Shown piece by piece: positions 7,513-40,954 of a stretch of DNA of 64,000 bases. Origin of the DNA: a virus (Duplodnaviria; Caudoviricetes). Made by a program: the position numbers and the translations under genes. Positions within the stretch are counted from its first letter, which is position 1; each line of letters starts with the position of its first letter. The notes beneath the pieces were generated by a model. That model was not told the origin of the DNA and searched no databases. It was given only the letters and a program-made list of their open reading frames with translations. Location: positions 1 through 64,000 of the IMG/VR virus record IMGVR_UViG_3300030330_005626, one strand, 5' to 3'.

Positions 7513-8418
7513 TCAAGCGTAACAATATTCAATAGCTGTTATCGCCGCGTCTTTTGACTTGAGCTCTATGTCGTAGTCAACAGCGAAAGAAACTCCTCTG
7601 TCTTTTGGTAACCCAGTGGGCATATCAGCATGACTGCGAGGGTTATTTTTATCTGGATGAGATTCCGAGTAGTGGAATAGTGGTTTAAAATAACCAGTGC
7701 GATGCCACGTTTTATAGCACAAAGTAAAAGCTTCAGTCTCTGTAAGACCATCTGGTAAGCATTTGTGATGGAGGTTGTCGTAAGTAATAGGAATAATAAA
7801 ATGCTTTGCAAGCAATTTAGGAGTCCAAATACCCTTGTCTTCATTCTCTACAACAAGGCGAGAGCGAACAGATTGATCGCACTCGCGAAGATTGAGCATA
7901 AAGCGATCAGCGATTTCTTGTGGCTCCCCTTTAGTGTTGTTAACGTGGATATTAATAGGGCAACGATAGTCTCTATGCGCTCCGAGCATATCCATAAGCC
8001 AACCGTGATGATTTAGTTCTTTGATAGTTTTCTCTACTTGAGCTTTACCCAAGCTTGCAAGAACATTGAACTGATCAGGATGACAAGAAATGCGAATACC
8101 TTTATCTCTGATAAGCATATTACAATCAGTGAGTGCCGCTTGTATGTCAATCCAGTCTGGATAATCTTGAATTTTGAGTTCTGCTACATCGTATGTAAGC
8201 AATGGAAACAAAGCCGAGCTAACGCGATAGCCCCAACCGTTAGAAGCGCACTGCTCTAAAATCTTATAAGTAACGCGAATGTTGTTAAGAGTGCGAGCGG
8301 AAACAGTAGCAACGGCTTCTTCGCGAGGAAGCTGAGAAAAGCGATGCCAAGTCATAGTTTGAAACTTATGACCTTGGTTAGCTAAAGTATTTGAAATGCA
8401 ACAAAGGTTATATGCCAT
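7513..8418 (-). CDS. uvsE: UV DNA damage endonuclease UvsE/UVDE
   Basis: YRVSS, HPDQF, VENED, YDNLHH, HYSES, HAD, ELKSKD; start placed at ATG 8418 after TTGACC-N17-CAATAT. Confidence 0.9.
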   Translation of the reverse strand: MAYNLCCISNTLANQGHKFQTMTWHRFSQLPREEAVATVSARTLNNIRVTYKILEQCASNGWGYRVSSALFPLLTYDVAELKIQDYPDWIDIQAALTDCNMLIRDKGIRISCHPDQFNVLASLGKAQVEKTIKELNHHGWLMDMLGAHRDYRCPINIHVNNTKGEPQEIADRFMLNLRECDQSVRSRLVVENEDKGIWTPKLLAKHFIIPITYDNLHHKCLPDGLTETEAFTLCYKTWHRTGYFKPLFHYSESHPDKNNPRSHADMPTGLPKDRGVSFAVDYDIELKSKDAAITAIEYCYA

Positions 8419-8485
8419 GTGTTTATATTGCACAACTTTTTTAAATTGGTCAATACTTTTTTAAGTTAAATGTGTATTCTATAAT

Positions 8486-11974: not shown

Positions 11975-12238
11975 TTAAATTCTTTTATTTTTAGCTTGTA
12001 TTTGTTTTTTTCTCGCTTTCTTTATATCTTCCGCCATATGTTTTGGGCCGTGAACAAGCATTTGCATTTGCAATCTTTGCGCGTTTTTAGATAATTTTTT
12101 AAGCCTTATATGTAATGAAGAACCAGAAACCATCTGCTTATTTGGATCAGCATAATAAACCAATTCATCCAATTCTGTTTGAATCTCATCCATCAGCTTT
12201 ACTATTTCTTCTGAGTACATATTAAAAATGGCAGACAA
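11975..12238 (-). CDS. Hypothetical protein between tRNAs (real start probably ATG near 12220)
   Basis: ORF track; annotated start overlaps tRNA-Arg 3' end. Confidence 0.5.
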   Translation of the reverse strand: MSAIFNMYSEEIVKLMDEIQTELDELVYYADPNKQMVSGSSLHIRLKKLSKNAQRLQMQMLVHGPKHMAEDIKKARKKQIQAKNKRI

Positions 12239-12305
12239 GCTGGGACTCGAACCCAGAACCTACGGTTTAGAAGACCGTTGCTCTATCCAATTGAGCTACT
12301 TGTCC
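12229..12305 (-). tRNA. tRNA-Arg(TCT)
   Basis: ACGGT-CTTCTAA-ACCGT arm, T-loop GTTCGAG, CCA. Confidence 0.9.
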
Positions 12306-12312
12306 ATAAGTT

Positions 12313-12390
12313 TGGTAGGGAAGGCGGGACTCGAACCCGCACTGTAACGATTTTAAGTCGTTTGCCTCCTGCCGATTGGGCTACTTCCCC
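12313..12390 (-). tRNA. tRNA-Leu(TAA) with short variable loop
   Basis: AACGA-CTTAAAA-TCGTT arm, 5-nt variable region, GGTTCGAGTCC, CCA. Confidence 0.85.
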
Positions 12391-13120: not shown

Positions 13121-13429
13121 TTAATCAACAATATTTTCACGCTTATATTTGAGCTTTAAGAAATCACAAATATCATAAATATTATTATCTTTTTTGAGAC
13201 TAATTGCGATAGTTTTTAACCCTTTTTTTAGGTATATTTCTAAGTCCTGAAGATCGACTTGTACTGCGCCCAATTTATATTCAATTAATATAAATAATTC
13301 GCCGTCGTTTAATGTACCCTGCCACTGGTACTTGGACATTTTATATAAACCATCAAGCCTTTTATTTTTTAATGCATTGCAGCCTTTTTGTGAAATTATT
13401 TTAAAAGACATTATTTCATCCTTTGACAA
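13121..13429 (-). CDS. Hypothetical protein
   Basis: 102-aa ORF overlapping sigma factor end. Confidence 0.5.
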   Translation of the reverse strand: MSKDEIMSFKIISQKGCNALKNKRLDGLYKMSKYQWQGTLNDGELFILIEYKLGAVQVDLQDLEIYLKKGLKTIAISLKKDNNIYDICDFLKLKYKRENIVD

Positions 13430-14280
13430 ACCAAATCTTTAAGTTTAGCCATTGCAATTGTTTCGATCTGCCTAATTCTTTCTCTAGTTACACCGAATTT
13501 ATCGCCAATGGATTCAAGAGTTTGACGTTTATCGCAGTCTAAAGCTTGCCTTTTTGATATAATATATCTTTCGCGGGAAGATAGCTTGCTCAAGCATTCG
13601 TATAATACTTTTGAATTGTTTTTATAAACATAAGCTTCATCGGGTGATTGATTACTTTTGTCCTCTATGATATCCATCAATTCTTTTTCATCCCCTTCTG
13701 CGTCTGATATTAAAGAATTTAAAGATGGTATTTGCAGCGAGCTTTCGTTTAATAATTTTACTCTATCAACTGATACGCCAACTTTTTTAGATATTTCTTT
13801 AACAGATGGATAACAATTATATTTTTCTTTATATTGCTCTTTAAATTTTATTATATTTAATTTCTGCTGGATAGAACCCGTTGGAATTCTAATTGTTCTC
13901 CCTTGGTTTGATAAAGCCCTTCTGATTTTTTGCTTTATCCAGAAAGCTGCGTAAGTAGAAAATTTAGCTCCAACGTTAGGTTTAAAGTTCTCAACGGCTT
14001 TCACCAAGCCAAGGTTGCCCTCAGAAATTAAGTCTTGTAATTCTAAACCAAGAGAATTAAAATCTTTAGCTATTTTTATTACTAATCTTAGGTTTGAATT
14101 AATTAAGATTTCTTTTGCTTCTTTACCTTTTTTTCTTGCAATGGTGCTACAACAACTCTTATTTTTAGACCATTTTAGCATCCGCTCAAACAATTCTATC
14201 TCCTCTTTTCGTGACAATAAAGGATATTTAGAGCTCTCTTCGTAATAAATATTTAAAAGGTAAGATTCTTCAGATGGCAT
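13411..14280 (-). CDS. RNA polymerase sigma-70 family factor (RpoD/RpoS-like)
   Basis: LINSNLRLVIKIAK, DLISEGNLGL, KFSTYAAFWIKQ, RTIRIP, TLESIG..GVTRERIRQIE. Confidence 0.92.
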   Translation of the reverse strand: MPSEESYLLNIYYEESSKYPLLSRKEEIELFERMLKWSKNKSCCSTIARKKGKEAKEILINSNLRLVIKIAKDFNSLGLELQDLISEGNLGLVKAVENFKPNVGAKFSTYAAFWIKQKIRRALSNQGRTIRIPTGSIQQKLNIIKFKEQYKEKYNCYPSVKEISKKVGVSVDRVKLLNESSLQIPSLNSLISDAEGDEKELMDIIEDKSNQSPDEAYVYKNNSKVLYECLSKLSSRERYIISKRQALDCDKRQTLESIGDKFGVTRERIRQIETIAMAKLKDLVCQRMK

Positions 14281-16078: not shown

Positions 16079-16732
16079 TTATTTCCAATTAAGTGCTTCA
16101 CTTATATTGGGAAACTTATCAACGAATATCTTTTTAATTTCTTCAGCTATTTCTCTATGCTCTTTTTGAGTGTCTTCGGCAGACCTAAGATCAATGTAGT
16201 GAACCCAACTTCTTAATGTTCCGTTCATATACATAGTTGTTTTAGTGTTTAAAGGTAAGACCCCTCTAGCAGTTTCTTTTGCGACTCCCATTTGTATAAG
16301 GGTTTCATATGCAGCTAAAGAACCTTCAAGAGAAGCTTCAGCGTATTCGTAAGCTTTGTGATCTTTATTCAGGGGGTCGCTGCTGCTTTGTCTATTTTTA
16401 TCCGCTGGGAACCTAAGTTCAATTGGCTCTAACCCAGTGGCTTTGCTGTATCTTTGGCTAAACTCTTGAAAGCTAAAACTTCTATGTCTTAAAATTTGCG
16501 CTGCGATAGCTCTGCTGGTAGTTATTTCAACGCACATACTAGCGAGTTCAAAGGGACTCCAGTGCTTATGTTTAATTAAATATTTAATTAATTTAGGCGC
16601 AGTTTTAGTGTTCATTTGATTGCTTGGGTTTGAAACCCTAGCGCAATACGAAACAATATCTTCAGGGTCGTTTAGTCCCTCAACCTCTGGTTTTGTTAGT
16701 GATATAAGTTTGACTCTCATTAAATATCCCAA
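16079..16732 (-). CDS. thyX: Flavin-dependent thymidylate synthase
   Basis: HWSPFE, QILRHRSFSFQEFSQRY, TQKEHR. Confidence 0.95.
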   Translation of the reverse strand: MGYLMRVKLISLTKPEVEGLNDPEDIVSYCARVSNPSNQMNTKTAPKLIKYLIKHKHWSPFELASMCVEITTSRAIAAQILRHRSFSFQEFSQRYSKATGLEPIELRFPADKNRQSSSDPLNKDHKAYEYAEASLEGSLAAYETLIQMGVAKETARGVLPLNTKTTMYMNGTLRSWVHYIDLRSAEDTQKEHREIAEEIKKIFVDKFPNISEALNWK

Positions 16733-16947
16733 TCGTCACACGCCATATCCATAATAACTTCAGCGGGTAAATCTGGATTTGTTTTTGCGTGATTTATGGC
16801 AGATAAAATTACTTCCGCTAAAAGGTTATACTTTTGAGCCTCTTCTAAATAATAGTTTATTTCGCTGGTCACAATCGAAATTATAAATTAACTTTTATTT
16901 GAAGTCAATTATTTTTAAAAATTAAAAAAGTGTAAAATATAATAGCT

Positions 16948-17769
16948 ATGGATATTTTTTTCACTCATTTTTATGGCAGAATGTCTGATGTCATGGGTAT
17001 AATAAACTGCGGTGCCTATGCAGAGAATGTCTCAGTAGACGAAGAGCAATACGCTTTAGAAAATGGCTGGACTAAACTTGAAAGCGCTAAGAATAAAGAT
17101 ATTTGGTACCAAAGTAGACAAACAAGAATAAAAGTATCGGAATTAAAATATAATAAAAAAATAAGAAAAATGACTAATCCTTGTAAGGGTATAAAGTCAG
17201 AAGTTAAGATGCTTAAAGATTGCGACATTGAAGAATTAAGAAAGGTTTATTGTGATTACATAAAATTGAAAAGCGATCAGTACAAGGAATCTGATGAAAT
17301 TTTTTCAGAATTTTATACTCACGACGAGTTTTTTAACGATTTACTGATAGACTCAGAATATAAAAGAGTTATAGAATACAGAGAAGATGGTGAGCTTCAC
17401 GCTTTCGTTTTTTGCAGGGTTTATGAAAAAGCTAACATAGCAACTTCAATACAATTTTGTTGGGATTACCACAATCCAAAAACATTTCTAGGGAAATATA
17501 GCTGCATAAAAGAAATAGAAATGTGCATAGACGAGGGTTTAGAGTATGTTTATTTAGGAGGCGGCTACGAAAATATGTGCATATATAAGTCAATGTACCA
17601 AGGGTTTGAGTGGTGGACTGGTAGCGAGTGGTCTAAAGATAAAGAAGCTTATAAAACTTTGTGCGCCAGCGACACAGATACAAAAACAATTTATGATTTA
17701 GGGCAACTAGAAGAAAGATACACAGGAGAATTTTTCTTTTCCCCAAATGAGATATCAAAAAGGGCATGA
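16948..17769 (+). CDS. Aminoacyl(Arg/Leu)-tRNA-protein transferase-like (ATE1/Bpt, GNAT fold)
   Basis: LENGW, R-I-x-V, WDY...LGKYS..KEI, YVYLG..YE...YKS.Y..FE. Confidence 0.65.
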   Translation: MDIFFTHFYGRMSDVMGIINCGAYAENVSVDEEQYALENGWTKLESAKNKDIWYQSRQTRIKVSELKYNKKIRKMTNPCKGIKSEVKMLKDCDIEELRKVYCDYIKLKSDQYKESDEIFSEFYTHDEFFNDLLIDSEYKRVIEYREDGELHAFVFCRVYEKANIATSIQFCWDYHNPKTFLGKYSCIKEIEMCIDEGLEYVYLGGGYENMCIYKSMYQGFEWWTGSEWSKDKEAYKTLCASDTDTKTIYDLGQLEERYTGEFFFSPNEISKRA

Positions 17770-18221
17770 TAGAAGATTATATAAAGTATATCAGTTTAAA
17801 GAGAAAGGAGCTTGGTGGCCACGCAATCTGCCCCTTTGCTAAAAGATTTTTAGATAAAACAGTAATAATAGAATCTAAAGACCTGCAAGCAGACGCTATA
17901 AAATGTTTAGAATCTCAAGATCGCCCAATGCTTTGGATGATATATGGTTGCCCGAATAAGTTTAATAAAGGGTGGCTTGAGTCGTTTTGTGAAAAACATA
18001 AAGAAAAAGCTAAGTCAAAAGATTTATGGCTGATATGGGATCACCCTGATCAAGTAAACAAAATAGGAGACGTAGAAACAAATAATAAAGAGTACGGAAT
18101 ACTGTTGATACAACCTCTAACAGAACTAAACGAATACTCTGATAAATTAAAAAACACTAATTATTATGATTTTTGGAAAAAAGACTATTATAAATCGATA
18201 GTAGAAGATAGAAAAAAATAA
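17766..18221 (+). CDS. DUF1415-like protein (CPFA...DHP)
   Basis: ICPFAK, DHPD, LLIQ..ELN. Confidence 0.55.
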   Translation: MIEDYIKYISLKRKELGGHAICPFAKRFLDKTVIIESKDLQADAIKCLESQDRPMLWMIYGCPNKFNKGWLESFCEKHKEKAKSKDLWLIWDHPDQVNKIGDVETNNKEYGILLIQPLTELNEYSDKLKNTNYYDFWKKDYYKSIVEDRKK

Positions 18222-18243
18222 GTGTAAATACTGGAAACAATCA

Positions 18244-18969
18244 ATGAAAGAATTTGAAATAGATTTTACAGAGGAAATAAATGCTCAAGCTTCAGAGGGG
18301 GCAGACTCTTTAGATAAGTTAACTTATAAAAAAACTCCAGAAGTATTTTTAAAAGTCGCTGAAAAAGACTTTAAATACATGGATATAAATATAAAGCCTC
18401 TTTTAGAGCTTTACCCTCCCGCTAATTCTAGCCAACAAACCAAAAATGAACTTCTGCAAGTTAAAAATTTTATGGAGCGATCCCACTCCAAAGAGTTTAC
18501 TTCCAATCTTAAAAGTATGAATGATGAGCCAGCTATGTTTATAATAGATTACTATAAAAAAGCAAGCGGCAAAGAAGTTCCAAAAACAATTTTAGGTTTC
18601 ATAACAGGAGGGGATGTTGAAGTTTTAGCGATGAAACTTAAAATGCATTTTAATAGACCGCGACCTTTTCAAATGGCAGAATATTATGACGTTAATTTAA
18701 ATTACAATAAAACAATTCAACACGGTGCAGCAGATGCGCCGTCTTATCCAAGTGGTCATACTTTATCGGCTTATTTTGCAGCTAGAGTTTTAAGTTATTT
18801 GTATCCAAAATATGAAGATGAGCTATTGAGAAGAGCCATGATGGTTGCTGATTCTAGAATTGCAGAAGGCGTTCACTTTAAAAGCGACAATATGTTTTCT
18901 TTTTATTTGGTTGACAGGGTTTTAATGCCAGCTTTCATAAAAGCATATGACAAAACAAGAAATAATTAA
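18244..18969 (+). CDS. PAP2-family phosphatase / vanadium haloperoxidase-like
   Basis: K-x6-RP (KMHFNRPRP), SYPSGH, SRIAEGVHFKSD. Confidence 0.85.
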   Translation: MKEFEIDFTEEINAQASEGADSLDKLTYKKTPEVFLKVAEKDFKYMDINIKPLLELYPPANSSQQTKNELLQVKNFMERSHSKEFTSNLKSMNDEPAMFIIDYYKKASGKEVPKTILGFITGGDVEVLAMKLKMHFNRPRPFQMAEYYDVNLNYNKTIQHGAADAPSYPSGHTLSAYFAARVLSYLYPKYEDELLRRAMMVADSRIAEGVHFKSDNMFSFYLVDRVLMPAFIKAYDKTRNN

Positions 18970-19369
18970 TTCTTTATCTTTTACTTATTGTAGGATTAAA
19001 CCATCAAAAATACATGGTGTTGGAGTTTTTGCCATAGTAGATATAGATAAAGGTGTGAACTTATTCCCAGACTGCTCTTGCGACTTAAAAAAAATAAAAA
19101 AAATAAACAAAAAAGAAATTTCTAATCTAGCTCCTGACATTTTAAAAATGATGAGCGATTTCCTAATTGAAAGTAAAACTCATTATTTCACAACTACGTC
19201 TTTAAACAATATAAACATATCTTACTTCTTGAATCATTCAGACCAACCAAATTGCGAGTGGGTAGAAAAAGATGACTCCTTTCGGCCTTTGAAAAACATA
19301 AAAAACCAAGAGGAGCTAACTATAAACTACGAAAAATATCTTGAAAGCGACCTTATAAAAAATGTATAA
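18947..19369 (+). CDS. SET-domain protein (lysine methyltransferase-like)
   Basis: SKIHGVGVFA, FLNHSDQPN, EELTINY. Confidence 0.85.
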   Translation: MTKQEIINSLSFTYCRIKPSKIHGVGVFAIVDIDKGVNLFPDCSCDLKKIKKINKKEISNLAPDILKMMSDFLIESKTHYFTTTSLNNINISYFLNHSDQPNCEWVEKDDSFRPLKNIKNQEELTINYEKYLESDLIKNV

Positions 19370-19712
19370 AAATTTAGCACCAGATATTCAAAGGCAAAGA
19401 CTTGTCATAGAAGGAACTTTACATAATCCATTTAAAGCAGAAGAAATGGATCGATTTTGTAGGGAAATGACAAAAGTATTAAACATGACAGAAGTTACTG
19501 CCCCGTTCTGCAACTACGACCCAGATTACGGTTGGTGCGCTTATGTCCACTGGAAAGAGAGCGGTATGCATATCTACGCTTGGGACGACAGAACTCCTTG
19601 CTTCTTCTCTGTGGATATCTATACTTGCAGAGAGTTTCAGGTAGAAAGCGCGTTAAATTATGTAAAAGATTTTTTTAAACAAAACTTAATTGAAGTTACT
19701 TGGAAAGACTAG
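19362..19712 (+). CDS. S-adenosylmethionine decarboxylase-like pyruvoyl proenzyme
   Basis: KES self-cleavage site, H-I-Y-A-W, DIYTC. Confidence 0.65.
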   Translation: MYKNLAPDIQRQRLVIEGTLHNPFKAEEMDRFCREMTKVLNMTEVTAPFCNYDPDYGWCAYVHWKESGMHIYAWDDRTPCFFSVDIYTCREFQVESALNYVKDFFKQNLIEVTWKD

Positions 19713-19714: not shown

Positions 19715-19927
19715 TTACCAATGTCTTATCACATTTGCGATAATAAAGAAACAGGTTATCAAGTTAACTATTACAATTAATGTTCTTATTAAAAGGCTGT
19801 ATCCTGCGTCTTTATTTGTTAGTATTGGAATATCTGGTTTGTCGTCGTCGGTCTTTCCGATTCGATGGTCTACGGTTCTAGCCCAAATTAACCAAAGTCT
19901 TTTAAACATTTTACCAAAATGGGCCAT
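19715..19927 (-). CDS. Small membrane protein
   Basis: C-terminal TM helix, ANVIRHW end. Confidence 0.55.
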   Translation of the reverse strand: MAHFGKMFKRLWLIWARTVDHRIGKTDDDKPDIPILTNKDAGYSLLIRTLIVIVNLITCFFIIANVIRHW

Positions 19928-22354: not shown

Positions 22355-22588
22355 TTAATCCTCATCATTACCTATGGCTTCCACAGGGCAATCATCCATA
22401 GCTTGATCACAAGAAGTTTTTTCTTCTTCGTTTTCGGGTTGCTTATAAACGTAAGAATACCCTCCGTCTACATTAGCTTTAAAATTAGAAGGGGCGATCT
22501 CTCTACATAAATTGCAGTCAATGCACTCCTCATCAACGTAGTATTGACCTTCTACGTTATCTTCAAACTTATTGTCTCTGTCAGCCAT
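22355..22588 (-). CDS. Ferredoxin (single-cluster 4Fe-4S/3Fe-4S)
   Basis: YYVDEECIDCNLC...CPVEAIG. Confidence 0.9.
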   Translation of the reverse strand: MADRDNKFEDNVEGQYYVDEECIDCNLCREIAPSNFKANVDGGYSYVYKQPENEEEKTSCDQAMDDCPVEAIGNDED

Positions 22589-24905: not shown

Positions 24906-25247
24906 TTATATTTTTGTGGTGGCGCGAAGCTTATCTATATAGGCTTTGGCAAGCTCTTCGTTTTGGCAGACTAGCCACGCTAAAGTCCAACGTTTCTCGA
25001 ACTCTTTTACTTTTTCCTCGGTGGGAAAAACCTCTGGATTACGTTTGTCAAACTGAGGTCTATCGTCTACCACTGGTTTAAAGTCAGGATGTACGATGTG
25101 TTGCGCTCTTGAAGGTGAGCAGTTAATGCACCTTCTGTAGGACAATAGACCGAAGTAAGGCTCATCCCATGCGATACAGTGCATAGTAATAGCACAGTTT
25201 TCGGTGGTAACCTCGCAGTCACATTTATCGCAATATTCTTTACTCAC
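24906..25247 (-). CDS. Cys-rich hypothetical protein
   Basis: CxxC pairs. Confidence 0.55.
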   Translation of the reverse strand: MSKEYCDKCDCEVTTENCAITMHCIAWDEPYFGLLSYRRCINCSPSRAQHIVHPDFKPVVDDRPQFDKRNPEVFPTEEKVKEFEKRWTLAWLVCQNEELAKAYIDKLRATTKI

Positions 25248-25271: not shown

Positions 25272-25700
25272 TTAATTAATGTCGAGAATTATTTTTAATT
25301 CTTTCCAAGTATTTTTTACTGGCTCATCAGTAAGAATAATATGGTCTGGATCACCCAACTCAAATTCTTTTACATGGTATTCTTTTCTTAAATCTCTAGT
25401 GGATTGTAAAAATATCTCAATAACTTCATCTTGGTTATTATTTTTTAATTCCTCTCGTAAATCTTGGTAAGGATTAACCAAGCACATGATTACATTTTTA
25501 TGTTTTTTATTTAGATAAGTTGCAACAGCATTTGCATTTTTTATATTCTCCTTGCGTCCAGACTTACCATAATTATTATTTGTAAACATCTCCCTAAACT
25601 CATCCCCATCAATAACAAACTGAGTTTCAAGATGCTTTGCGAGTAGCTTTCCTAAAGTAGTTTTACCTGAAGCGGGTTGGCCATATAGTAAATAAACCAT
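25272..25700 (-). CDS. Adenylyl-sulfate kinase-like P-loop kinase
   Basis: GQPASGKTT, IDGDEFR, VNPY...R. Confidence 0.7.
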   Translation of the reverse strand: MVYLLYGQPASGKTTLGKLLAKHLETQFVIDGDEFREMFTNNNYGKSGRKENIKNANAVATYLNKKHKNVIMCLVNPYQDLREELKNNNQDEVIEIFLQSTRDLRKEYHVKEFELGDPDHIILTDEPVKNTWKELKIILDIN

Positions 25701-25948: not shown

Positions 25949-26590
25949 TTATTGTTTTGTGTATTTATATTTTTTGACTATTTTAAGAGCTTCGATTCTA
26001 GCGTAATACAATCTAGACATAACAGTTCCTACTGGAATTTTTAATTTTTTTGAAATCTCTTTGTACTCCATTCCGTCTCTATGGTGCATCCTAAGCACAT
26101 CTCTGTGGTTGGGTTTAAGCTTTCTTAAAACCTTATCTATTAAAAGTTTATTTTCTTTAAGAGACTCTAAGCTTTCAATATTAGAATAAGGTAATTTTTC
26201 TGTTTGCTCGTTGTAATTTATATTTACTTCAACTTGGTGTCCGTCATTATACTTGTCGCTTCTATTAAACTCCCCTGATAAGTTTATACACTTTTCTATG
26301 TCAATAAATCCGTATTTTTTATTTTTTCTGTACTCGTCTAAAAAGTTTCTGTTTGCGATAGAACAAAACCAAGTCTTGAAGGCGCAATTACCTTTAAAGG
26401 TCTTAATTTTTTGCCAAGACTTGACAAGGGTTTGAGAGTATATTTCTTCCCCTAGAGAGTCATTACCTTTACAGTATTTAAGAATCCACGATTTAAAGTA
26501 ATGTTTATTTCTACAAATAAGCTCGTCAAAAGCAGCGCGGTTGCCCCTTTTGCACATAGAAACAAGCTGTTTGTCGGTTTTATTTTCCAA
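25949..26590 (-). CDS. ECF (RpoE-like) sigma factor
   Basis: AAFDEL, FKGNCAFKTW..IA.N, YKEIS..L.IPVGTVMSRLYYAR. Confidence 0.9.
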   Translation of the reverse strand: MENKTDKQLVSMCKRGNRAAFDELICRNKHYFKSWILKYCKGNDSLGEEIYSQTLVKSWQKIKTFKGNCAFKTWFCSIANRNFLDEYRKNKKYGFIDIEKCINLSGEFNRSDKYNDGHQVEVNINYNEQTEKLPYSNIESLESLKENKLLIDKVLRKLKPNHRDVLRMHHRDGMEYKEISKKLKIPVGTVMSRLYYARIEALKIVKKYKYTKQ

Positions 26591-26789: not shown

Positions 26790-27205
26790 GTGCTACCGAA
26801 ACCTCCAGCGTCTCTTTCGGAAACGTCTAAAGATAAAACTGTTTCAAAATTCATGTCTTCACATTTTTCAAAAATTAATTGAGCGATTCGAGAAGACTTT
26901 GGTAAGCTTACAGATTCAAACTTATCAGTGTTTATTAGCACTACACCAATTTCACCATTATAGCCTGAATCTATTACGCCAGCTAAAACATCTACGCCAT
27001 TTTTTACAGCTAGTCCACTTCTAGGGGCGACCCTTCCATAAAATCCAGCAGGTATAGAAAGCTTGATGCCAGTTTTTACTACTTTTCTCTGAAGCGGCTG
27101 CAAGGAAACATCTTCGGTAGAAAACAAATCATATCCTGCGTCAGTCACATGAGACTTAGTAGGGTATCTAGAATCTGAATTTAATAATACTATTTTACAG
27201 TTCAT
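26780..27205 (-). CDS. dut: dUTPase (trimeric)
   Basis: AGYDL, PRSGLA, GVIDSGY.GE, RIAQL, GGFGSTG. Confidence 0.95.
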   Translation of the reverse strand: MNCKIVLLNSDSRYPTKSHVTDAGYDLFSTEDVSLQPLQRKVVKTGIKLSIPAGFYGRVAPRSGLAVKNGVDVLAGVIDSGYNGEIGVVLINTDKFESVSLPKSSRIAQLIFEKCEDMNFETVLSLDVSERDAGGFGSTGN

Positions 27206-27741
27206 CTTAATTCTTTCCTTAGCAGTCTCCAGCGATCACTATCTATACTTTTCTCTCCAGAGTCAATCTTTTTAATCATATCTAAAACTTCATCAATGCT
27301 ATTGTAAATATAATTATGCGGAAGCATTCCTAGAATCCATAAAGGTGTTTTAGATTTACCGCCTTCCATAGAGATAAAAATCGGCTTTTTCATTCTTACC
27401 GCAGTCACAAGTTCTTCCGCACTTCCCCAGCTTGCAACATCTGGAAGTAAATGAGCAATAATAAAATCTGATCTATCCACTAGATTAAGATCATAATTTC
27501 TAATAACGTGCATCCTTTTAGCTACGTCACCGTAATAGCCATTTTGCATATTCTCGGCCATTTTTTGACGAACGCCATCATCTTCTTCTACATCTTTAAC
27601 GAACGGTTTTCGATAAGGATTGAAGGTGATAATATTAAGTTGGTCTAATTCATCTTCTACTTGTTTTCTCCAATCTTTACCGTCAGCATATTGCATATGC
27701 CCAACAAGATAAGTTTTGGTTTTTTCAAGTAAATTACTCAT
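27202..27741 (-). CDS. Nucleoside 2-deoxyribosyltransferase-like protein
   Basis: TYLVGHM, NP, D...V..SD, SWGSAEE. Confidence 0.65.
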   Translation of the reverse strand: MSNLLEKTKTYLVGHMQYADGKDWRKQVEDELDQLNIITFNPYRKPFVKDVEEDDGVRQKMAENMQNGYYGDVAKRMHVIRNYDLNLVDRSDFIIAHLLPDVASWGSAEELVTAVRMKKPIFISMEGGKSKTPLWILGMLPHNYIYNSIDEVLDMIKKIDSGEKSIDSDRWRLLRKELR

Positions 27742-27933: not shown

Positions 27934-28650
27934 TCATTGGAGAGATTCTAGAATCTTTTTGGTCTGATTACAATCTTTTACGTCAAAAAAATTCCCATCA
28001 TTATTATTATTTATATTTATTTTAGCGTCGTAATCATTGCCACCCTCGAAGCCTTTATCACCAAAATAATAAATTTTATTATACATTCCAGAGTCTCTTA
28101 CCCAATCCACAGCCTGAGACTTGTTAAAACCTTTTGGTTGTATGTCTAAACTTATCATCCCTCCAATTCTTATATCTAGATTAGGGAATTCTTCAGATAA
28201 ATCATTAGCTATAGTTTCTCTTTCGGAATGGATTTTATCCCATTCGAAATATTTTTTTCTTTCGTTTTCGTTTGAGTCTCTCCCCGCGATAGAGAAATTT
28301 ATCATTCCCACTCTTTTATCAATATATTTTTTACCTTTTTGTTGGTAAGGGGATTTCATATGCCACTCTAAAAGTTTAGAAAGTAATTCTACGGAAGGCT
28401 TCCATTCTCTTTTGTATATTAATTTATTTTTAATTCTAAGTTCATTACCCATAGAGGAAAAAATACCGCGAGCTCTAGAAAAAATGCTTGAAGGTAACTG
28501 CTTTAATAAAGAATTACTAGAACTACCGCCAACCAAGAAAAAATCTTTATTTTTTGACCAGTCTAAAAATCTATAAACAAAATCCCCCTGCATTTTTTGC
28601 GTAGGAGGAGTTAGGGTTCCGTCTATGTCAAAGAGATATGCTATTTTCAT
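27934..28650 (-). CDS. HAD-IIB phosphomannomutase-like
   Basis: FDIDGTLT, GMINFS..GR, GGMISLDI.PKG, FGDK...GGNDY. Confidence 0.85.
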   Translation of the reverse strand: MKIAYLFDIDGTLTPPTQKMQGDFVYRFLDWSKNKDFFLVGGSSSNSLLKQLPSSIFSRARGIFSSMGNELRIKNKLIYKREWKPSVELLSKLLEWHMKSPYQQKGKKYIDKRVGMINFSIAGRDSNENERKKYFEWDKIHSERETIANDLSEEFPNLDIRIGGMISLDIQPKGFNKSQAVDWVRDSGMYNKIYYFGDKGFEGGNDYDAKININNNNDGNFFDVKDCNQTKKILESLQ

Positions 28651-29558
28651 TTTAATAGATTTCTAATAGCTGAAAAAATTCTTTCTCTATCGTTAATATT
28701 TCTTCTTAACCATCGTTTACTGTAAATGACTTTATTATTTACAATTTTTATTCCATCTTTTAATATAGGTGATGTTTTAAAATTACTTAATTGAGGGAAA
28801 AAAGATAAAATTTCTTCTAGTTCTAGTTTAGTTTTTATATCTTTTAATTTTTTAATTTTGGTTGTAGAGAGTCTAGATTTGTCTTGCTTGTGGACTTTTT
28901 CTTGTAAAATTTCACAAACTGCACCATAAACTGTGGGAGCTTCCAATCTTAGAAGCTTTTTTTTATATTTTTGAGTTATCACACCTTTTTTAAGACAGGC
29001 TGGGTTTTCCTTCATTGAACTACTGGTGAAAACTTTTCTTCCATCTCCGTCCCATCTTGGGCTTTTTTTAACGTTTGCTTTAGAGCCTTTTCTCCATACC
29101 GTCCCTGTAGTTTTTTGACTTTGGGCAGTTATCATATAATAATAAGTTCCATAAGACTCATAAAGATAAGGTACGCCTGAAACTTTTACTACGGGTTCTC
29201 TATTCCTTTTAGTTCTTATAAATTGAGTTATTTGACCTATTTTTTTAGAAGCCTTTTGTATTTCTTCTTGCGTAGGGTATCTTAAAATACCATTAGAATC
29301 TTCAATTATCTGGTCGGCATCCTTTTTGATAAAAAAATTATTCTGAGCTAAATGTGTATTAAAATTGCGAGTAAATTTTATTTCATTGTCGGGGTTATCA
29401 AGAGTTAAAACAACTCTAGCTTTTCCTGCGAGTTGACCCTTTTCAACTTTTTTATAAAACCAATATTTTGCCCTATTAACAGCTTCTTTTCTGCTTAAAG
29501 CATTAACCTCATGAAGTAATTTATCTTTATAGTAAACTCTATATTTTTTAAATGCCAT
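28647..29558 (-). CDS. Lys-rich hypothetical protein
   Basis: 303-aa ORF. Confidence 0.6.
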   Translation of the reverse strand: MAFKKYRVYYKDKLLHEVNALSRKEAVNRAKYWFYKKVEKGQLAGKARVVLTLDNPDNEIKFTRNFNTHLAQNNFFIKKDADQIIEDSNGILRYPTQEEIQKASKKIGQITQFIRTKRNREPVVKVSGVPYLYESYGTYYYMITAQSQKTTGTVWRKGSKANVKKSPRWDGDGRKVFTSSSMKENPACLKKGVITQKYKKKLLRLEAPTVYGAVCEILQEKVHKQDKSRLSTTKIKKLKDIKTKLELEEILSFFPQLSNFKTSPILKDGIKIVNNKVIYSKRWLRRNINDRERIFSAIRNLLK

Positions 29559-29893
29559 TACTTTTTCTTCTTTGGTTTTGTTCGAGGGGGAGCATGAAAA
29601 AGTCTTTTGGGTAATCTCCAGCCATTTTGATATAAAAAGTTACTGCATACGTCTGCAAATCTTGCTATGTCAGTCTCAGATTTATCCCAAAAAAAAGCAT
29701 GAGCTATCTCATGAATACTTGTGTTTAGCTCCGACTTTTTAGTAAGATAAGGGTTGATATAAATTTTTGGATCAGGCTCGCTTGGGTCTAAACATAAGCC
29801 GTCTACTATTTCACCGTAAGCTTTGTGAGGTTTTCGAAAAACGATTTCGTACTCTACGCCTTTAGTGTTTGTAAATCTAAAGTTTTCTTTCAT
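29558..29893 (-). CDS. HExxH zincin-like metallopeptidase domain protein
   Basis: DGLC...IYI...IHEIAHA. Confidence 0.65.
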   Translation of the reverse strand: MKENFRFTNTKGVEYEIVFRKPHKAYGEIVDGLCLDPSEPDPKIYINPYLTKKSELNTSIHEIAHAFFWDKSETDIARFADVCSNFLYQNGWRLPKRLFHAPPRTKPKKKK

Positions 29894-30231
29894 TAAGAAT
29901 CTTGGTCTTCAATATCTTTTATTTTATCTATTTTAAAACCAATATTTTTAATCCCTAATTTCAATCCAGATTTTTCTAGAACATCAACTTTATTTTGAAA
30001 AGACTGGAGTTCTCTGTTCTCCCATTCGCCTTTCAATAGAAGGTATTTAAGTTTATTTTGTAAATCTTCTTTTGCTATTTCGAACTCCTCTACAGAGTAT
30101 TCTCCTGAGGCGTTTTTATCTTCCATTTCAGAACACTCAGACATGACTTTTAACATTTCAGCCTTCCACCAACCGATGGTATCGTGAAGCATTTCTGCTT
30201 GTTTTTTAAGCTTGCTTTTTATTTCTTCCAT
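29893..30231 (-). CDS. Coiled-coil hypothetical protein
   Basis: 112-aa ORF. Confidence 0.55.
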   Translation of the reverse strand: MEEIKSKLKKQAEMLHDTIGWWKAEMLKVMSECSEMEDKNASGEYSVEEFEIAKEDLQNKLKYLLLKGEWENRELQSFQNKVDVLEKSGLKLGIKNIGFKIDKIKDIEDQDS

Positions 30232-30301
30232 AGCTTGAGTTTAATGTTCTAATTGTTAGCTTTCTTGTATTATGGGGCTTTTTTACCGTAAAGTCAAGCT
30301 T

Positions 30302-30538
30302 TTATCTCCAGTTGCAGAAGCTAGTAGATATTCCTTTGGGGTCTATTTTTTTTCTTAAAAGTAAGCTAGAGCATCTGTTTAACTCTACCATTAATTCTCT
30401 ATCAGAAATTTCTTTGTTTTTAGAAAGCTCGTCCATGTAGTCTTGAAAATTATAGAAGGCGGTTCTCCAAGGAACCCAATAAGCTGAAACGTTATCTTCG
30501 AAAACATCTTTTAAATCATCAACAAGGTTTTTTCTCAT
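30302..30538 (-). CDS. Hypothetical protein
   Basis: GTGTA-N10-ATG. Confidence 0.55.
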   Translation of the reverse strand: MRKNLVDDLKDVFEDNVSAYWVPWRTAFYNFQDYMDELSKNKEISDRELMVELNRCSSLLLRKKIDPKGISTSFCNWR

Positions 30539-30554
30539 TAATTATAATTACACT

Positions 30555-30872
30555 TTATTTTGACTCAAGCTCTCTAATTTTAGCTACTAAATCATCTATA
30601 ACTGCGGCTCTGGCTTCTAGTTCAGGCATAGCTTGATCTACTAACGAAGCTAATTGTTCGTTTATTATTTTTAAAGCTTCAACCTCTTGTTTGTAATGTT
30701 TTAAATTGTGTTTTAATTCAGATATGTTTTTATCCTTTTTAGAAGAAATAATCTTGAGCTCAGATATATTTTTATCAATAGAGCTCCTCTTACCGAGGTT
30801 TATTAAATAACCCAAGGTAAAAGATATTAAGATAGTGAATATGAAAGCGGTAATTCTTAAAGCATGATTCAT
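30555..30872 (-). CDS. Membrane-anchored coiled-coil protein
   Basis: TM + heptads; GTGTA-N9-ATG. Confidence 0.6.
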   Translation of the reverse strand: MNHALRITAFIFTILISFTLGYLINLGKRSSIDKNISELKIISSKKDKNISELKHNLKHYKQEVEALKIINEQLASLVDQAMPELEARAAVIDDLVAKIRELESK

Positions 30873-30895
30873 GCCTTGTATTACACTTTATTTTA

Positions 30896-32410
30896 TTAAA
30901 TATCTCCGTCAGCCGCTCTATAACTTTGCTTCACTTTGCCGCCGCGTTTCATCTTTAGAAACATATTAACGCGAGCCATAGCCCAAGAACCTCGACTTTG
31001 ACCTGGTCTGTGTGACCCAGAAAAAGCTCCAGCCCCTCTGCGGTAAACTTTTTTCAACTGAGAAAGTGTTACCTTCTTGGAATATTTAGAATTATGCTCT
31101 TTAACCTTGTTTCTTAAAGCGAGGGTAGTTTTTTCGGAAAAGGTTATAGCTGGCCCACTTTTACCAGCGCTTCCTTTTTTGTTTCTGGAAGAGCCTCTTC
31201 TTCTTTCGCTAGGTGCCGCTGGGGTTTGCGCGGCGGATTTTGGTCCTCTTCTCTTAGCTGCTGAAGATTCAAAATCGGACTCGTTTAAATGATCTTTACA
31301 TTTAACCTCATCTTCTAGGGTCATAACTTCAGAGTATTCTTCTTCGCTCATATCGTATGAAGAGTTGATCTCTTCGTATTCAGCGTCAGAGTTTTTATAA
31401 CTCATGTAATCATAAGCTGCTTCAACAAAGTGTTCGGCTTTTGAGATTTTATCTTGAACCCAAGCCATAATATTTGCATCTTCAGGCATTGCAGCCATCA
31501 TTACGGCTAGTTCACTTGATAATTTAGAGATTTTTCTAAGCTGGGCTTCAGCCATGCTAACTTCATGATCTTCACTATCGGCCTTGGCTTTTTTCATTTG
31601 TTCTGGAGTGGGAGCCCCTTCTTCCCCCTTCTTTCTCATTTTTTCTCCTGAGCCGCTTTTGATTCTTTTTCTTTTCTCGTGAATGTTTTTCCAAAGACTA
31701 GCATACTTTTCTTCCATACTTTCTTCCTCTGAGGCTTTTCCCTGCTTTTTTAGTATGGCTTTTTGTAGGGCGACAGGAAGCTTTTTCTGTTTTTCGGTTA
31801 AGCCTTTGGTTGGCTTGTCGTCTTTAGAGTCTTTTTTATTCTCCTCTTTTTTCTTGTCGCCCTCATTTTCCTCGTCTTCCTTCTTAGGGCTTTTGCCTTG
31901 CTTTTTAAGTATCGCTTTTTGCAGGGCGGGTGGAAGCTTCTTTTGTTTCTCGGTTAGCGCAGCTTCACTTTCTTCATCTGAGCGCCCACAACCATTGTCG
32001 CACTTACAATCATCGTCTTCTGTTATCTCTTCCTCAACAAAAGCCAAGGCTGGGTTAACGCTTAAAAGCTGGTCAAAGTCATAAATAGTTTCTCCATCCC
32101 AATCTTCAGAGCCTTTTGTGTAATCTGTTACAGATTTTTTAGCTTCCCACATCTTACAAGACCAGTATCGAGCTTTTGTTTTGGGACCAGGATTATCGCA
32201 GTTATGTCTTGCTCTGAAATTCTTTCTACGATCTGGATCATCGCGTTTAATTTCCATATTTGGGTCACCAAAGTTCACTTTTACAACGTTTCCTTTTTCG
32301 TTTTTAACGTAAACGGAGAACTTTTTAGGCCCATTAGGGGTTCTAAAAGGCTTGTTTAGAGTCTTCTTCTCTTTAGCCTCTACCAAGTATTTAGATAAAT
32401 CGATTTCCAT
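30896..32410 (-). CDS. Modular virion-associated-type protein: small basic domains joined by acidic linkers
   Basis: KVNFGD...FRARHNC...YWSC..W module, duplicated LTEKQKKLPxALQKAILKKQGK, WVQDKI module, VYRRG.GA...WAMARVN module. Confidence 0.75.
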   Translation of the reverse strand: MEIDLSKYLVEAKEKKTLNKPFRTPNGPKKFSVYVKNEKGNVVKVNFGDPNMEIKRDDPDRRKNFRARHNCDNPGPKTKARYWSCKMWEAKKSVTDYTKGSEDWDGETIYDFDQLLSVNPALAFVEEEITEDDDCKCDNGCGRSDEESEAALTEKQKKLPPALQKAILKKQGKSPKKEDEENEGDKKKEENKKDSKDDKPTKGLTEKQKKLPVALQKAILKKQGKASEEESMEEKYASLWKNIHEKRKRIKSGSGEKMRKKGEEGAPTPEQMKKAKADSEDHEVSMAEAQLRKISKLSSELAVMMAAMPEDANIMAWVQDKISKAEHFVEAAYDYMSYKNSDAEYEEINSSYDMSEEEYSEVMTLEDEVKCKDHLNESDFESSAAKRRGPKSAAQTPAAPSERRRGSSRNKKGSAGKSGPAITFSEKTTLALRNKVKEHNSKYSKKVTLSQLKKVYRRGAGAFSGSHRPGQSRGSWAMARVNMFLKMKRGGKVKQSYRAADGDI

Positions 32411-32423
32411 ATGTTAAATAATA

Positions 32424-32440
32424 TACACTTTTAAAGTGTA
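32424..32440. promoter_or_regulatory. Back-to-back GTGTA promoter motifs (TACACTTTTAAAGTGTA) driving divergent genes
   Basis: 13 nt to ATG 32410 (minus) and 9 nt to ATG 32450 (plus). Confidence 0.6.
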
Positions 32441-32449
32441 TTATACAGT

Positions 32450-32782
32450 ATGAATCTTATTATTAATGCAGAATTATCCTCTGATCCGCCGTCAGAAGGG
32501 CTTTTTTTTAGATTCTTAACTATGGTAGCAAAAAAAGACCTAGAGTATTACGTTTTACTTGAATCTGAGAAGGAAAAAATTGACTTACATTATAATTTTT
32601 TAACAAAAAAAGGCTGGTTTGATTATGTCGATGAAATTGTGCAGCCAGAATGGAAGGAGGAAGGGGTTAGGTTAGACACGGATTATAATTACCCTTTGAC
32701 TGTAAAAACTGAATATATACGCTGCGAAAACACTAATTTAATTATTGGTCAGTTAAAGTGTTTGAGAAATATTACTCGTTGA
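32450..32782 (+). CDS. Hypothetical protein (possible degenerate HAD fold)
   Basis: 110-aa ORF behind GTGTA motif. Confidence 0.55.
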   Translation: MNLIINAELSSDPPSEGLFFRFLTMVAKKDLEYYVLLESEKEKIDLHYNFLTKKGWFDYVDEIVQPEWKEEGVRLDTDYNYPLTVKTEYIRCENTNLIIGQLKCLRNITR

Positions 32783-32948
32783 TTATTTCACAGTGTATTT
32801 CAATATCAGCGTTTATAAAACCTTCCTCATGAAGATATTCAAGGAGTAAAATAGCGTAATCATCAGAAACTACGTTTTCAGGGTCGTATATCTTAACCTT
32901 TTTTTTGTAAACTACAATGTCTGTACCTAAAACTTTAAGCTTTTTCAT
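32772..32948 (-). CDS. 58-aa protein (LEYLHEEGFI), probable paralog of 8486-8695; not in ORF track
   Basis: Hand translation; GTGTA-N9-ATG. Confidence 0.55.
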   Translation of the reverse strand: MKKLKVLGTDIVVYKKKVKIYDPENVVSDDYAILLLEYLHEEGFINADIEIHCEIINE

Positions 32949-32969
32949 AACTATATATACACTAAAAAC

Positions 32970-33476
32970 TTGTTAAAAATGAAAGACGAAATGAAAATCA
33001 ATTTAAGTAAAGCATCAAAAAGAGATGTTTTAGTAAGAGATGCAAGAATACTAATATTAATATTAGCATTGGGTATTATTTTTCACTTATCTTTTCTTTG
33101 GCTGTCTATTGATGGAGAAAGTATGTTTGACACTTACTCAGACGGAGAAGAAGTATTGGTAAATAAAGTCAGCCACAAAATTATAAAATTAAGTAGGGGA
33201 GATGTGATAGCATTCTCAAATGATGACGGCAAAGAGATACTTGTGAAAAGGATCATTGGTATGCCAAATGAAAAAATAAAAACTTTTAACGGCCAAATAT
33301 TTATAGATGATGTACTCTACGAAGACGAGTTCTCAGAAAGAAACGACGAGTATTCTTTTGGTTATGTTAATTACACACTAAAACGAGACGAATATTGGGT
33401 CGTTGGCGATAATAGATCAAACACTTGGAGCGGCAAAATAAAAAAAGAGAATATTATAGGGGTTATTCTAAACTAA
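32970..33476 (+). CDS. Signal peptidase I (S26)
   Basis: TM, GESM..T, RGDVI, VKRIIGMP, GDNR.N. Confidence 0.85.
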   Translation: MLKMKDEMKINLSKASKRDVLVRDARILILILALGIIFHLSFLWLSIDGESMFDTYSDGEEVLVNKVSHKIIKLSRGDVIAFSNDDGKEILVKRIIGMPNEKIKTFNGQIFIDDVLYEDEFSERNDEYSFGYVNYTLKRDEYWVVGDNRSNTWSGKIKKENIIGVILN

Positions 33477-33691
33477 AAAACTATAATACTATTACTTTTA
33501 GAGAAGTTCTCTAAGGCGTAAGTAGTCCAGTCGATAGAAGCCTTAGACTTTTTAGCTCTATCGTATTGAGAATAACACACTGCCGCCCTTTGACTTTGAT
33601 TTGTAAACTCTTTCCGCATGGTTGAGTCAGCCATGCAGGAGTTAATAAATTCGTCTTTACTCTGTTCTTTTTTAGGGGATGGCAGTGGCAT
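33473..33691 (-). CDS. Small phage protein (MPLP.P...E...EFI..CM...EF...QR.AVC)
   Basis: Recognisable module, often head-associated (recollection). Confidence 0.65.
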   Translation of the reverse strand: MPLPSPKKEQSKDEFINSCMADSTMRKEFTNQSQRAAVCYSQYDRAKKSKASIDWTTYALENFSKSNSIIVF

Positions 33692-33695
33692 TTAT

Positions 33696-34880: not shown

Positions 34881-34976
34881 AATATGTAATGTTTGTGCCT
34901 TTTCGGCGTTAGTGGGCTTTTAGCCCGTTTCAATTAAAATAAATCAATTTTAAAAATAAGTCAACACAAAAACACT

Positions 34977-35831: not shown

Positions 35832-35868
35832 TAAAAAGATTATGTTTTGTTTTTTGAAATTTATCAAC

Positions 35869-40945: not shown

Positions 40946-40954
40946 AAGATATTC

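Follow-up and report, generated by a model that had tools for sequence, protein, structure and literature searches.

Introduction

Transferases that draw an amino acid from an aminoacyl-tRNA serve cell-wall synthesis, lipid aminoacylation, N-degron pathways and a few antibiotic pathways. The present study concerns a predicted transferase of this kind in a virus, encoded by g1, the first of five tightly packed plus-strand open reading frames (ORFs; g1 to g5) in a 64,000-nucleotide stretch of DNA, here called the window (positions 1 to 64,000 of IMG/VR record IMGVR_UViG_3300030330_005626), from an uncultured large phage of the Caudoviricetes. The second gene, g2, encodes a probable thiolate-ligated heme oxygenase, and the other three a phosphatase (g3), a methyltransferase (g4) and a decarboxylase-like protein (g5).

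Among the closest described systems is the AglC-AglA pair of argolaphos biosynthesis in Streptomyces monomycini. AglA, the prototype YqcI/YcgG heme enzyme, has a sandwich fold with Cys44 as heme ligand and, served by ferredoxin and its reductase, N-hydroxylates the guanidine of the arginyl amide AMPn-Arg, not that of free arginine, as described in the accessible part of PMC12866846. The same text has AMPn-Arg made from aminomethylphosphonate, arginine, ATP, total tRNA, the arginyl-tRNA synthetase ArgRS and AglC, and AglC is therefore an Arg-tRNA-dependent transferase. A table of the argolaphos gene cluster lists a YqcI/YcgG protein with two GNAT-type "peptide aminoacyl-tRNA ligases" (PMC8976061). 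GNAT-fold aminoacyl-tRNA transferases that act on small molecules include VlmA, DhpH, DhpK, PacB and Orf11, according to the available portion of PMC12945691.

Two protein families bear more directly on g1 and g2. In klAte1, an arginyl transferase of the ATE1/Bpt family, Tyr303 and Lys304 are described as the catalytic pair, Trp260 as a tRNA contact, Ser255 and Ser273 as part of the donor pocket and Glu277 as the residue that binds the arginine side chain, the last being Gln in the Leu-transferring Bpt (PMC9351520, in the part available). For the second gene the relevant family is DUF6875, renamed "cytochrome P422" in a December 2025 preprint (10.64898/2025.12.11.692455). In the sections of that preprint that could be consulted, these are b-heme enzymes with a Cys ligand in the motif RxGxVCP, heme binding is abolished by a Cys-to-Ser change, and activity requires ferredoxin and its reductase; tryptophan is hydroxylated at N1, C6 or C7, and the fold consists of seven helices around a four-stranded sheet.

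An ATE1/Bpt-type transferase of phages

The g1 protein scores 39.2 bits against the Pfam family ATE_C (cut-off 25), and AlphaFold gave a confident model of it (pLDDT 84.6, pTM 0.83) from an input of 19 family members. Foldseek places human and yeast ATE1 at the top of the ranking for this model, followed by MprF-type aminoacyl-phosphatidylglycerol synthases and FemX, whose structural alignments to g1 span only 156-188 residues. The predicted structure has an ATE/GNAT fold that includes the whole ATE1 core fold and an N-terminal part, as the earlier note on this DNA, made from the sequence alone, had expected of the gene starting at 16948.

The g1 family profile aligns with residues 234-307 of yeast ATE1 (E 4.9e-5), and g1 residues were mapped onto klAte1 numbering through this alignment. 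The catalytic pair corresponds to Y213 and K214, kept in 82/84 and 84/84 relatives respectively, and the tRNA contact Trp260 to W172 (84/84). Glu277 falls on E189, which is kept in 83 of the 84 relatives (the aligned yeast ATE1 column is Glu/Asp277). At position 167, which aligns with Ser255, the relatives have S (36), A (21) or T (20), and at position 185, which aligns with Ser273, they have A (45) or S (33). Arginine would be the most likely amino acid donated by g1, chiefly because the acidic donor-pocket residue E189 is kept.

In other respects g1 departs from the characterised enzymes. It has about half the size of ATE1, and Pfam gave no ATE_N match at E <= 1. The four metal-binding (Zn/Fe-S) cysteines of ATE1 were not found: in the alignment of 19 members, none of the first 100 residues is a conserved Cys. 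Scores against the NCBIfam bpt models were 29.5-42.9 bits, far below the cut-offs of 170-267; pfam13480 was reached below its cut-off, and no PHROG family was found. The subfamily is, moreover, restricted to phages. Relatives of g1 number 38 in a word-indexed protein database and are encoded by at least 519 viral contigs, while a scan of one genome per prokaryote species returned only five contigs from metagenome-assembled genomes (MAGs). Neither g1 nor a distant g1 gave a tblastn match in 50,697 phage records. A literature search found no report of a phage ATE/Bpt homologue, although such searches cannot prove absence.

A probable thiolate-ligated heme oxygenase

The g2 protein gave no Pfam match better than E 0.07 and is placed in phrog_10325, a family whose function is not known. 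An exhaustive profile search brought together 883 representative clusters at E <= 0.001 as the g2 family. Among 74 diverse members, the invariant residues are Cys22, Pro23 and Trp137 (Cys-Pro in 74/74), and Ala25 and Asp92-His93-Pro94 are near-invariant.

Remote relationships were examined with hhalign using bona fide members from cellular genomes, in which DUF1415 occurred in 7/61 and DUF6875 in 1/151. Against five bona fide DUF1415 proteins the g2 family aligned at 94.2% (E 1.1e-7) over 134 columns, with the CPFA of g2 on CPFA and its DHP on FHP. Against the single bona fide DUF6875 protein it aligned at 71.7% (E 3.5e-5) over 45 columns, which make up the N-terminal, heme-binding V-C-P-F region, and here Cys22 of g2 fell on the ligand Cys. 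A language-model atlas also points g2 to DUF1415/DUF6875 clusters (score 0.93), and the control genomes gave no DUF6875 match. The three families thus have in common an N-terminal G-x-x-x-C-P-F/Y motif with its Cys on the P422 heme ligand, and the likeness to DUF1415 extends to the H-P motif. The Arg and Gly of the P422 motif RxGxVCP are not strictly kept in the g2 family. Compared with P422 and DUF1415 proteins, g2 is also shorter (151 aa against 180-300) and found only in phages, with its family under both Pfam cut-offs. To our knowledge, DUF1415 has no known function.

The model of g2 (pLDDT 89.4) shows seven helices and four main strands, which matches the architecture described for P422. 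Foldseek searches of the PDB returned nothing below E 0.05; AglA was the top structural match, with a score under the tool's caution line. A search of PDB sequences with the g2 family profile did not find AglA, and its mitofusin matches (E 0.009) were regarded as spurious. In the BFVD library of viral structures there were four matches at E <= 0.001, none with an assigned function. The YqcI/YcgG family (PF08892) matched none of five phage records, two of which carry g2 relatives, with controls positive, and was not among the families matched by the 74 g2 family members. Taken together, the invariant Cys, its alignment with the P422 ligand and the predicted architecture suggest that g2 is probably a thiolate-ligated heme oxygenase. 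It would work like AglA; membership of the YqcI/YcgG family goes beyond the present evidence.

A motif scan of cellular genomes for g2 relatives gave 205 stretches with the pattern, of which none was confirmed. Relatives of g2 are present in 26 records of cultured T4-like cyanophages, including S-PM2, where they are annotated as hypothetical only. From these surveys the g1 and g2 families appear to be essentially phage-only. One long protein, P0252 (572 aa), has a g2-like domain at residues 403-559. Among the 74 family members one carries Radical_SAM and one SPASM, and the carrier is presumably P0252, as it is the sole long protein in the set.

The genes flanking cellular DUF1415 genes (six of the seven loci, L173 being left out) included no ATE-type gene and no conserved partner. 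The single DUF6875/P422 gene from a cellular genome directly adjoins, within L179:583-2032 (minus strand), a gene with the aminoacyl-tRNA editing domain tRNA_edit (75.4 bits). Being a single case, this offers no more than a hint that certain enzymes of the P422 type operate close to aminoacyl-tRNA chemistry.

Recurrent pairing of g1 and g2

We investigated the neighbourhoods of both genes in the loci returned by the scans, of which the best 80 of at least 519 g1 loci and the best 80 of 350 confirmed g2 stretches were kept. ORFs were called on these loci and classified with iterated profiles. The g1 set, 83 loci and the window, formed 49 groups at 90% g1 identity, and the 78 loci of the g2 set formed 48 groups.

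A g2 gene lies within three genes of g1 in 17/49 groups and is the most frequent of the neighbours that we recorded at this distance. A family of 68 aa follows with 13/49 groups, a family of 211 aa with 11/49 and an AdoMetDC-like gene with 10/49; this last gene is upstream of g1 and, in nearly all cases, directly adjacent to it. PAP2 and SET genes were found at the same distance in only 6/49 and 5/49 groups, respectively. From the side of g2 the association is closer, with g1 within three genes in 27/48 groups. In 12 of these g1 lies directly upstream of g2 on the same strand, in six directly downstream on the same strand and in four directly downstream in convergent orientation, and in the other five one or two genes stand between them.

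On a quickly built tree with 49 representatives of g1, the g2-linked genes fall into four separate clades with unlinked lineages between them. The label "no g2" changes six times on this tree, at least four of the changes being by well-supported branches; L014 and L017 are labelled "none", yet have g2 somewhat further away. The adjacency of g1 and g2 is therefore a recurrent pairing, often joined by an AdoMetDC-like gene, with PAP2 and SET as occasional companions. These observations support a phage-specific ATE-type transferase that is recurrently paired with a probable thiolate-heme oxygenase and often accompanied by a pyruvoyl decarboxylase.

Neither of the two unnamed neighbours resembles g2 or occurs in the window. 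The 211-aa protein upstream of g1 has no Pfam match and no atlas lead, and the 68-aa family downstream of g1 likewise has no Pfam match. In T4-like cyanophages, g2 relatives adjoin the baseplate genes gp25 and gp6 without g1. Some T4-like loci with a baseplate gene (L132:3000-4528, L160:5950-7221 and L077:9634-9966) have a set of g2, g1 and DUF6614, the last a protein of about 110 aa (71-80 bits), and in some of the DUF6614 loci g1 has only 147-160 aa. No DUF6614 relative was found in the window.

The other three enzymes and the five genes as a block

The three remaining proteins have clear family assignments. The g3 protein scores 52.9 bits against Pfam PAP2 (cut-off 27.2), and the motifs K-x6-RP, PSGH and SR-x5-H-x3-D, which we take to define the PAP2 catalytic site, are kept in 7/7 distinct members aligned. 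It resembles soluble acid phosphatases more than lipid phosphatases, because it has no transmembrane-like segment; its best NCBIfam model is PhoC, at 37 bits and far under the cut-off. For g4 the Pfam SET score is 47.2 bits (cut-off 22.4). Of the motifs typical of SET enzymes, NHS-x-x-PN is kept in five of six aligned members (the sixth has NYS) and E-L-T-x-x-Y, with the catalytic Tyr, in 6/6.

The g5 protein exceeds the AdoMet_dc cut-off of 25 with 43.8 bits, and in an alignment with the S-adenosylmethionine decarboxylase (AdoMetDC) 2iii, whose structure is solved, its E66-S67 falls on the processing site and its D-x-Y-T-C on the catalytic Cys. Against the AdoMetDC equivalog TIGR03330 it scores 30.9 bits, below 75.65. 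AdoMetDC/SpeD homologues are reported as common in marine phages (PMC9992855) and as having AdoMetDC, arginine decarboxylase or ornithine decarboxylase activity (PMC9992855, PMC10407285), as far as the accessible text of these papers goes. The g5 protein resembles them in its class-1b size, in the Ser at its processing site and in its catalytic Cys; its nearest cultured matches, Pelagibacter phage genes with 22% identity, are too distant for its substrate to be called. A second AdoMetDC-like subfamily, located directly 5' of g1 in other lineages, has 20-24% identity to g5 and Thr-Ser instead of Glu-Ser at the processing site. Judging from the residues kept, all five enzymes look catalytically intact. 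With ATE_C, PAP2, SET and AdoMet_dc all above their Pfam cut-offs, and the DUF1415 likeness of g2 upheld by hhalign, the family names given in the earlier note hold.

The earlier note had also treated the five genes as one system whose members should be found together elsewhere. They do occur together elsewhere. The closest relatives, loci L001-L005 (65-78% protein identity), have the five genes in the same order, and the complete 180-kb record G002/L013 has them in the order g5'-g1-g2-g3-g4. In L001-L005 the island shares the strand of its flanks and occupies another slot than in the window. In L005 the block precedes a homologue (94% identical) of the small membrane-anchored protein that is convergent with g5 in the window (Table 1), followed by ThyX; in the window these two genes stand on either side of the block, which has the opposite orientation. 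The five-gene block appears to have moved as a unit, since its order is kept while the flanks are reshuffled and the orientation is reversed. A relative of the membrane-anchored protein is also found within three genes of g1 in 6/49 groups.

The g1 proteins of the window and of L013 share only 37% identity, compared with 59% for g2, 62% for g3 and 64% for g4. To judge from these identities, g1 diverges much faster than its neighbours or was swapped.

The idea of a single five-gene system fared less well. G008, a complete 158-kb genome with terminal repeats, has many genes in common with the window (51-82% identity) and carries g1 (45%) and g5 (69%), which are separated and on opposite strands; the other three families are missing from it. 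Together with the low frequencies of PAP2 and SET near g1, this genome indicates that the five genes do not make up an obligate unit.

A possible pathway of arginyl transfer and oxygenation

We propose, tentatively and at somewhat less than an even chance, that g1 transfers arginine from tRNA to an amine and that g2 then oxygenates the product. The functional core would be the g1-g2 pair, in which g1 takes an amino acid, most likely arginine, from aminoacyl-tRNA to a primary amine. We infer that g2, fed by ferredoxin, would act second and oxygenate either the acceptor or its arginyl adduct, with N-hydroxylation as the most likely reaction. A protein N-terminus or a small amine may serve as the acceptor, and g5, the frequent third member, may supply agmatine, putrescine or decarboxylated S-adenosylmethionine. 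The soluble PAP2 phosphatase and the SET methyltransferase would be facultative additions in a few lineages. A fuller version, in which many aquatic phages pass arginine from Arg-tRNA to a protein N-terminus or to a polyamine from the neighbouring decarboxylase and then N-hydroxylate it, giving an N-hydroxy-arginyl adduct during infection, seems to us rather unlikely in all its parts. The earlier note had suggested post-translational modification or small-molecule tailoring by all five genes; the tailoring idea survives in a more specific version, namely arginyl transfer followed by heme-dependent oxygenation, and its five-gene scope is not supported as an obligate one.

The precedent for this order of steps is the AglC-AglA pair, which has the same two-step logic, with an Arg-tRNA transferase followed by a thiolate-heme N-hydroxylase that uses ferredoxin. 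The likeness is one of logic and fold and not of family membership. The GNAT proteins of the argolaphos cluster are listed under pfam13480 and COG3146, not as ATE-type (PMC8976061), and no phosphonate genes were seen in the phage loci examined. The plant cysteine oxidase route provides a second precedent, in which, according to the available part of PMC5376641, an oxygenase enables ATE1 arginylation of the same substrate. There, however, the first step belongs to the oxygenase, which contains non-heme iron and has N-terminal Cys as its target, and the genes are unlinked; the present data do not indicate that g2 acts on protein N-termini. As a possible electron donor for g2 we would name the ferredoxin encoded in the window (Table 1), which is not specific to g2, since it is also present in a relative that has no g2.

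Several findings weigh against the proposed pathway. The arginine donor rests mainly on one residue, and as the other two pocket positions (167 and 185) vary among the 84 relatives, many g1 relatives look more Bpt-like in the donor pocket. Arg80 of klAte1, the positive acceptor-pocket residue for N-terminal Asp/Glu, could not be mapped onto g1, whose N-terminal part aligns at sequence level neither with ATE1 nor with a MAG ATE_C protein; R57 and R60 of g1 are conserved in 77/84 and 84/84 relatives. Heme binding by g2 is deduced from sequence, and no sequence-level link of g2 to AglA or YqcI/YcgG was found. DUF6875 (PF21780) was touched by 16/74 family members (best E 3.4e-5) and DUF1415 (PF07209) by 5/74 (best E 1.3e-4), in both cases below the cut-off and in neither case by g2 itself. 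As regards linkage, 32/49 g1 groups have no g2 within three genes on either side and 21/48 g2 groups have no g1 nearby, a complete 196-kb record carries a g2 relative but no ATE_C, and no g2, PAP2 or SET was found anywhere in G008, the g2 profile being positive in two control records. The linkage fractions describe a biased sample, because only the best 80 per scan were kept, and synteny inherited within lineages inflates the group counts.

A strong rival explanation sees the block as a hot spot where auxiliary genes with separate actions collect, and traces their adjacency to shared descent and to insertion-site preference instead of a pathway. Polyamines would then be adjusted by g5 and protein N-termini modified by g1, with roles unrelated to these for g2, g3 and g4. 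Relatives differ in a highly mosaic way in this region, g1 elsewhere adjoins the auxiliary genes PhoH, Hsp20, Cpn10 and QueF-like, and, as far as the accessible part of PMC9992855 goes, phage AdoMetDC homologues are stand-alone polyamine enzymes. The separated g1 and g5 of G008 and the cyanophage g2 relatives beside baseplate genes fit the same picture. We consider independent cargo somewhat less likely than the proposed pathway, as the adjacency of g1 and g2 is found repeatedly, in four g1 clades and with the pair in tandem, in reversed tandem or convergent, the same five families meet in another order in G002/L013 despite the distant g1, and three of the four junctions in the window overlap, which suggests co-translation. 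The opposite view, that all five enzymes serve one pathway on a single substrate by aminoacylation, oxygenation, dephosphorylation, methylation and decarboxylation, can draw on the presence of the five families in the window, L001-L005 and G002/L013, on the block that moved and flipped as a unit, on PAP2 (L008, L021) and SET (L030) genes adjoining g1 in other lineages and on the intact catalytic motifs. Common descent explains much of this co-occurrence, however, because the genomes with all five belong to two related g2/g3/g4 lineages (59-77% identity), and the scarcity of PAP2 and SET near g1, along with the absence of three of the five families from G008, makes a five-gene pathway very unlikely.

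Two further explanations concern the role of g1 itself. It could act alone in a classical N-degron route, arginylating N-terminal Asp/Glu on host or phage proteins that the host Aat, ClpS and ClpAP then degrade, with g2 uninvolved; in bacteria, Arg at the N-terminus belongs to the secondary destabilising residues. The frequent occurrence of g1 without g2 is in keeping with this, as are its whole ATE1 core fold and catalytic residues, and all characterised ATE/Bpt members act on protein N-termini according to the part of PMC9351520 that is available. Set against these points, ATE_N was not detected by Pfam, the four Zn/Fe-S cysteines are absent, the acceptor determinant Arg80 could not be placed on g1, the bpt models score far below their cut-offs, and GNAT-fold aminoacyl-tRNA transferases also use small molecules (PMC12945691, in part), so that we regard the N-degron role as improbable. 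Hardly probable is that g2 serves as a regulatory heme- or redox-sensing subunit of g1 and replaces the lost Cys-rich, cofactor-binding part in trans, which would make transfer responsive to heme, oxygen or redox state. The absence of the conserved N-terminal cysteines in g1, the inhibition of ATE1 by hemin (stated in the accessible text of PMC9351520) and the tight adjacency of g1 and g2, with reading frames overlapping by 4 nt, would agree with such a subunit; the g2 relatives that stand alone in complete cyanophage genomes would not, and the g2 relatives of known function are catalysts.

If the proposed arginyl transfer and oxygenation hold, phages would divert charged tRNA into chemistry other than translation, and the pair would be the first viral aminoacyl-tRNA-dependent tailoring pathway. 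It would also give a first function to the DUF1415-like phage family, including a gene conserved in the cultured T4-like cyanophages (S-PM2 among the 26 records). Should the genes be independent after all, protein N-termini in the infected cell could still be rewritten by an arginyl transferase of the phage.

Layout and upstream sequence of the island

The ORF coordinates (Table 1) agree with the arrangement first described for this DNA, namely five packed plus-strand genes with three overlapping junctions inside a minus-strand arm. Between roughly 3 and 38 kb of the window, the majority of genes lie on the minus strand. The overlaps amount to 4 nt between g1 and g2, 23 nt between g3 and g4 and 8 nt between g4 and g5, and 22 nt separate g2 from g3. 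The earlier note had also pointed to tRNA-Arg and tRNA-Leu genes of the phage; both are encoded, at a distance of 4.5 kb, and the argument from them is weak. These tRNAs, with anticodons TCT and TAA, probably read A/T-rich codons of the kind often supplied by AT-rich phages.

Table 1. The five island genes and features around them (positions in the window).
Feature	Position	Strand	Description
tRNA-Arg(TCT) and tRNA-Leu(TAA)	12229-12390	-	ARAGORN; context only
Flanking gene	16720-16872	-	ORF call
Divergent intergenic region 5' of g1	16873-16947	.	AT-rich; first GTGTA and sigma-70-like matches on both strands
g1	16948-17769	+	273 aa; minimal ATE1/Bpt-type aminoacyl-tRNA transferase, phage-restricted subfamily
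g2	17766-18221	+	151 aa; small, soluble; phage family remotely akin to DUF1415 and DUF6875/P422; probable thiolate-heme oxygenase
g3	18244-18969	+	241 aa; soluble PAP2-superfamily phosphatase
g4	18947-19369	+	140 aa; minimal SET-domain methyltransferase
g5	19362-19712	+	116 aa; class-1b AdoMetDC-like pyruvoyl decarboxylase proenzyme
Small membrane-anchored protein	19715-19927	-	70 aa; convergent with g5; transmembrane-like segment, Kyte-Doolittle (KD) mean 2.59
4Fe-4S ferredoxin	22355-22588	-	77 aa; Pfam Fer4_13, 76.1 bits

The promoter-like matches in the intergenic region 5' of g1 score 10-11 of 12, and their number in the g1 upstream region is not above that in shuffled sequence (18 against 14.5, sd 3.3). 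The region is not conserved, as in relatives a coding gene directly precedes g1. GTGTA motifs before genes 1 and 3, which the earlier note had pointed out, are present at 16930 and 18222, but their counts are at chance level and they are not conserved. The sequence common to both sites, AAGTGTAAA, has three copies in the window, all outside called ORFs, against 1.15 expected, and 14/100 shuffles reach three; GTGTAAA occurs 13 times against 10.8 expected, which is not above chance. The motif 5' of g1 is missing in 3/3 close relatives and that 5' of g3 was seen in 1/4. GTGTA was consequently rejected as a regulatory motif.

Other genes of the window

The window belongs to a large phage and encodes Pol III alpha, class I ribonucleotide reductase, ThyX, dUTPase, dCMP deaminase, a RecA-like protein, DnaB and a primase. 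Its polymerase has at most 32% identity to the 50,697 cultured-phage records, the island block had no blastn match among these records, and the phage appears on this comparison to have no close cultured relative. The replication module contains a transfer-messenger RNA (tmRNA) gene with a 30-residue tag peptide (54249-54651, plus strand), which has the RecA-like gene on one side and, on the other, a small ORF that comes before DnaB.

Sugar-nucleotide and glycosyltransferase genes are numerous at 39257-53136 (plus strand) and 27934-35870 (minus strand). They include a GDP-mannose dehydratase, an epimerase, a UDP-galactopyranose mutase and several glycosyltransferases of families GT2 and GT1, as well as a GT2-methyltransferase fusion, a phosphomannomutase and a UDP-glucose dehydrogenase-like gene. 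This set suggests that the phage makes or alters a glycan.

The minus strand further encodes two sigma-70-family factors (13411-14280 and 25949-26590), one with regions 2, 3 and 4 and the other similar to extracytoplasmic function (ECF) factors with regions 2 and 4. An APS-kinase-like P-loop kinase (25272-25700), a nucleoside 2-deoxyribosyltransferase-like protein (27202-27741) and a UvdE UV endonuclease (7513-8433) were found on the same strand. Finally, a 113-aa protein at 24906-25247 (minus strand), located 5 kb from the block in the window, has a homologue with 76-80% identity immediately 5' of g1 in L003, L004 and L005.

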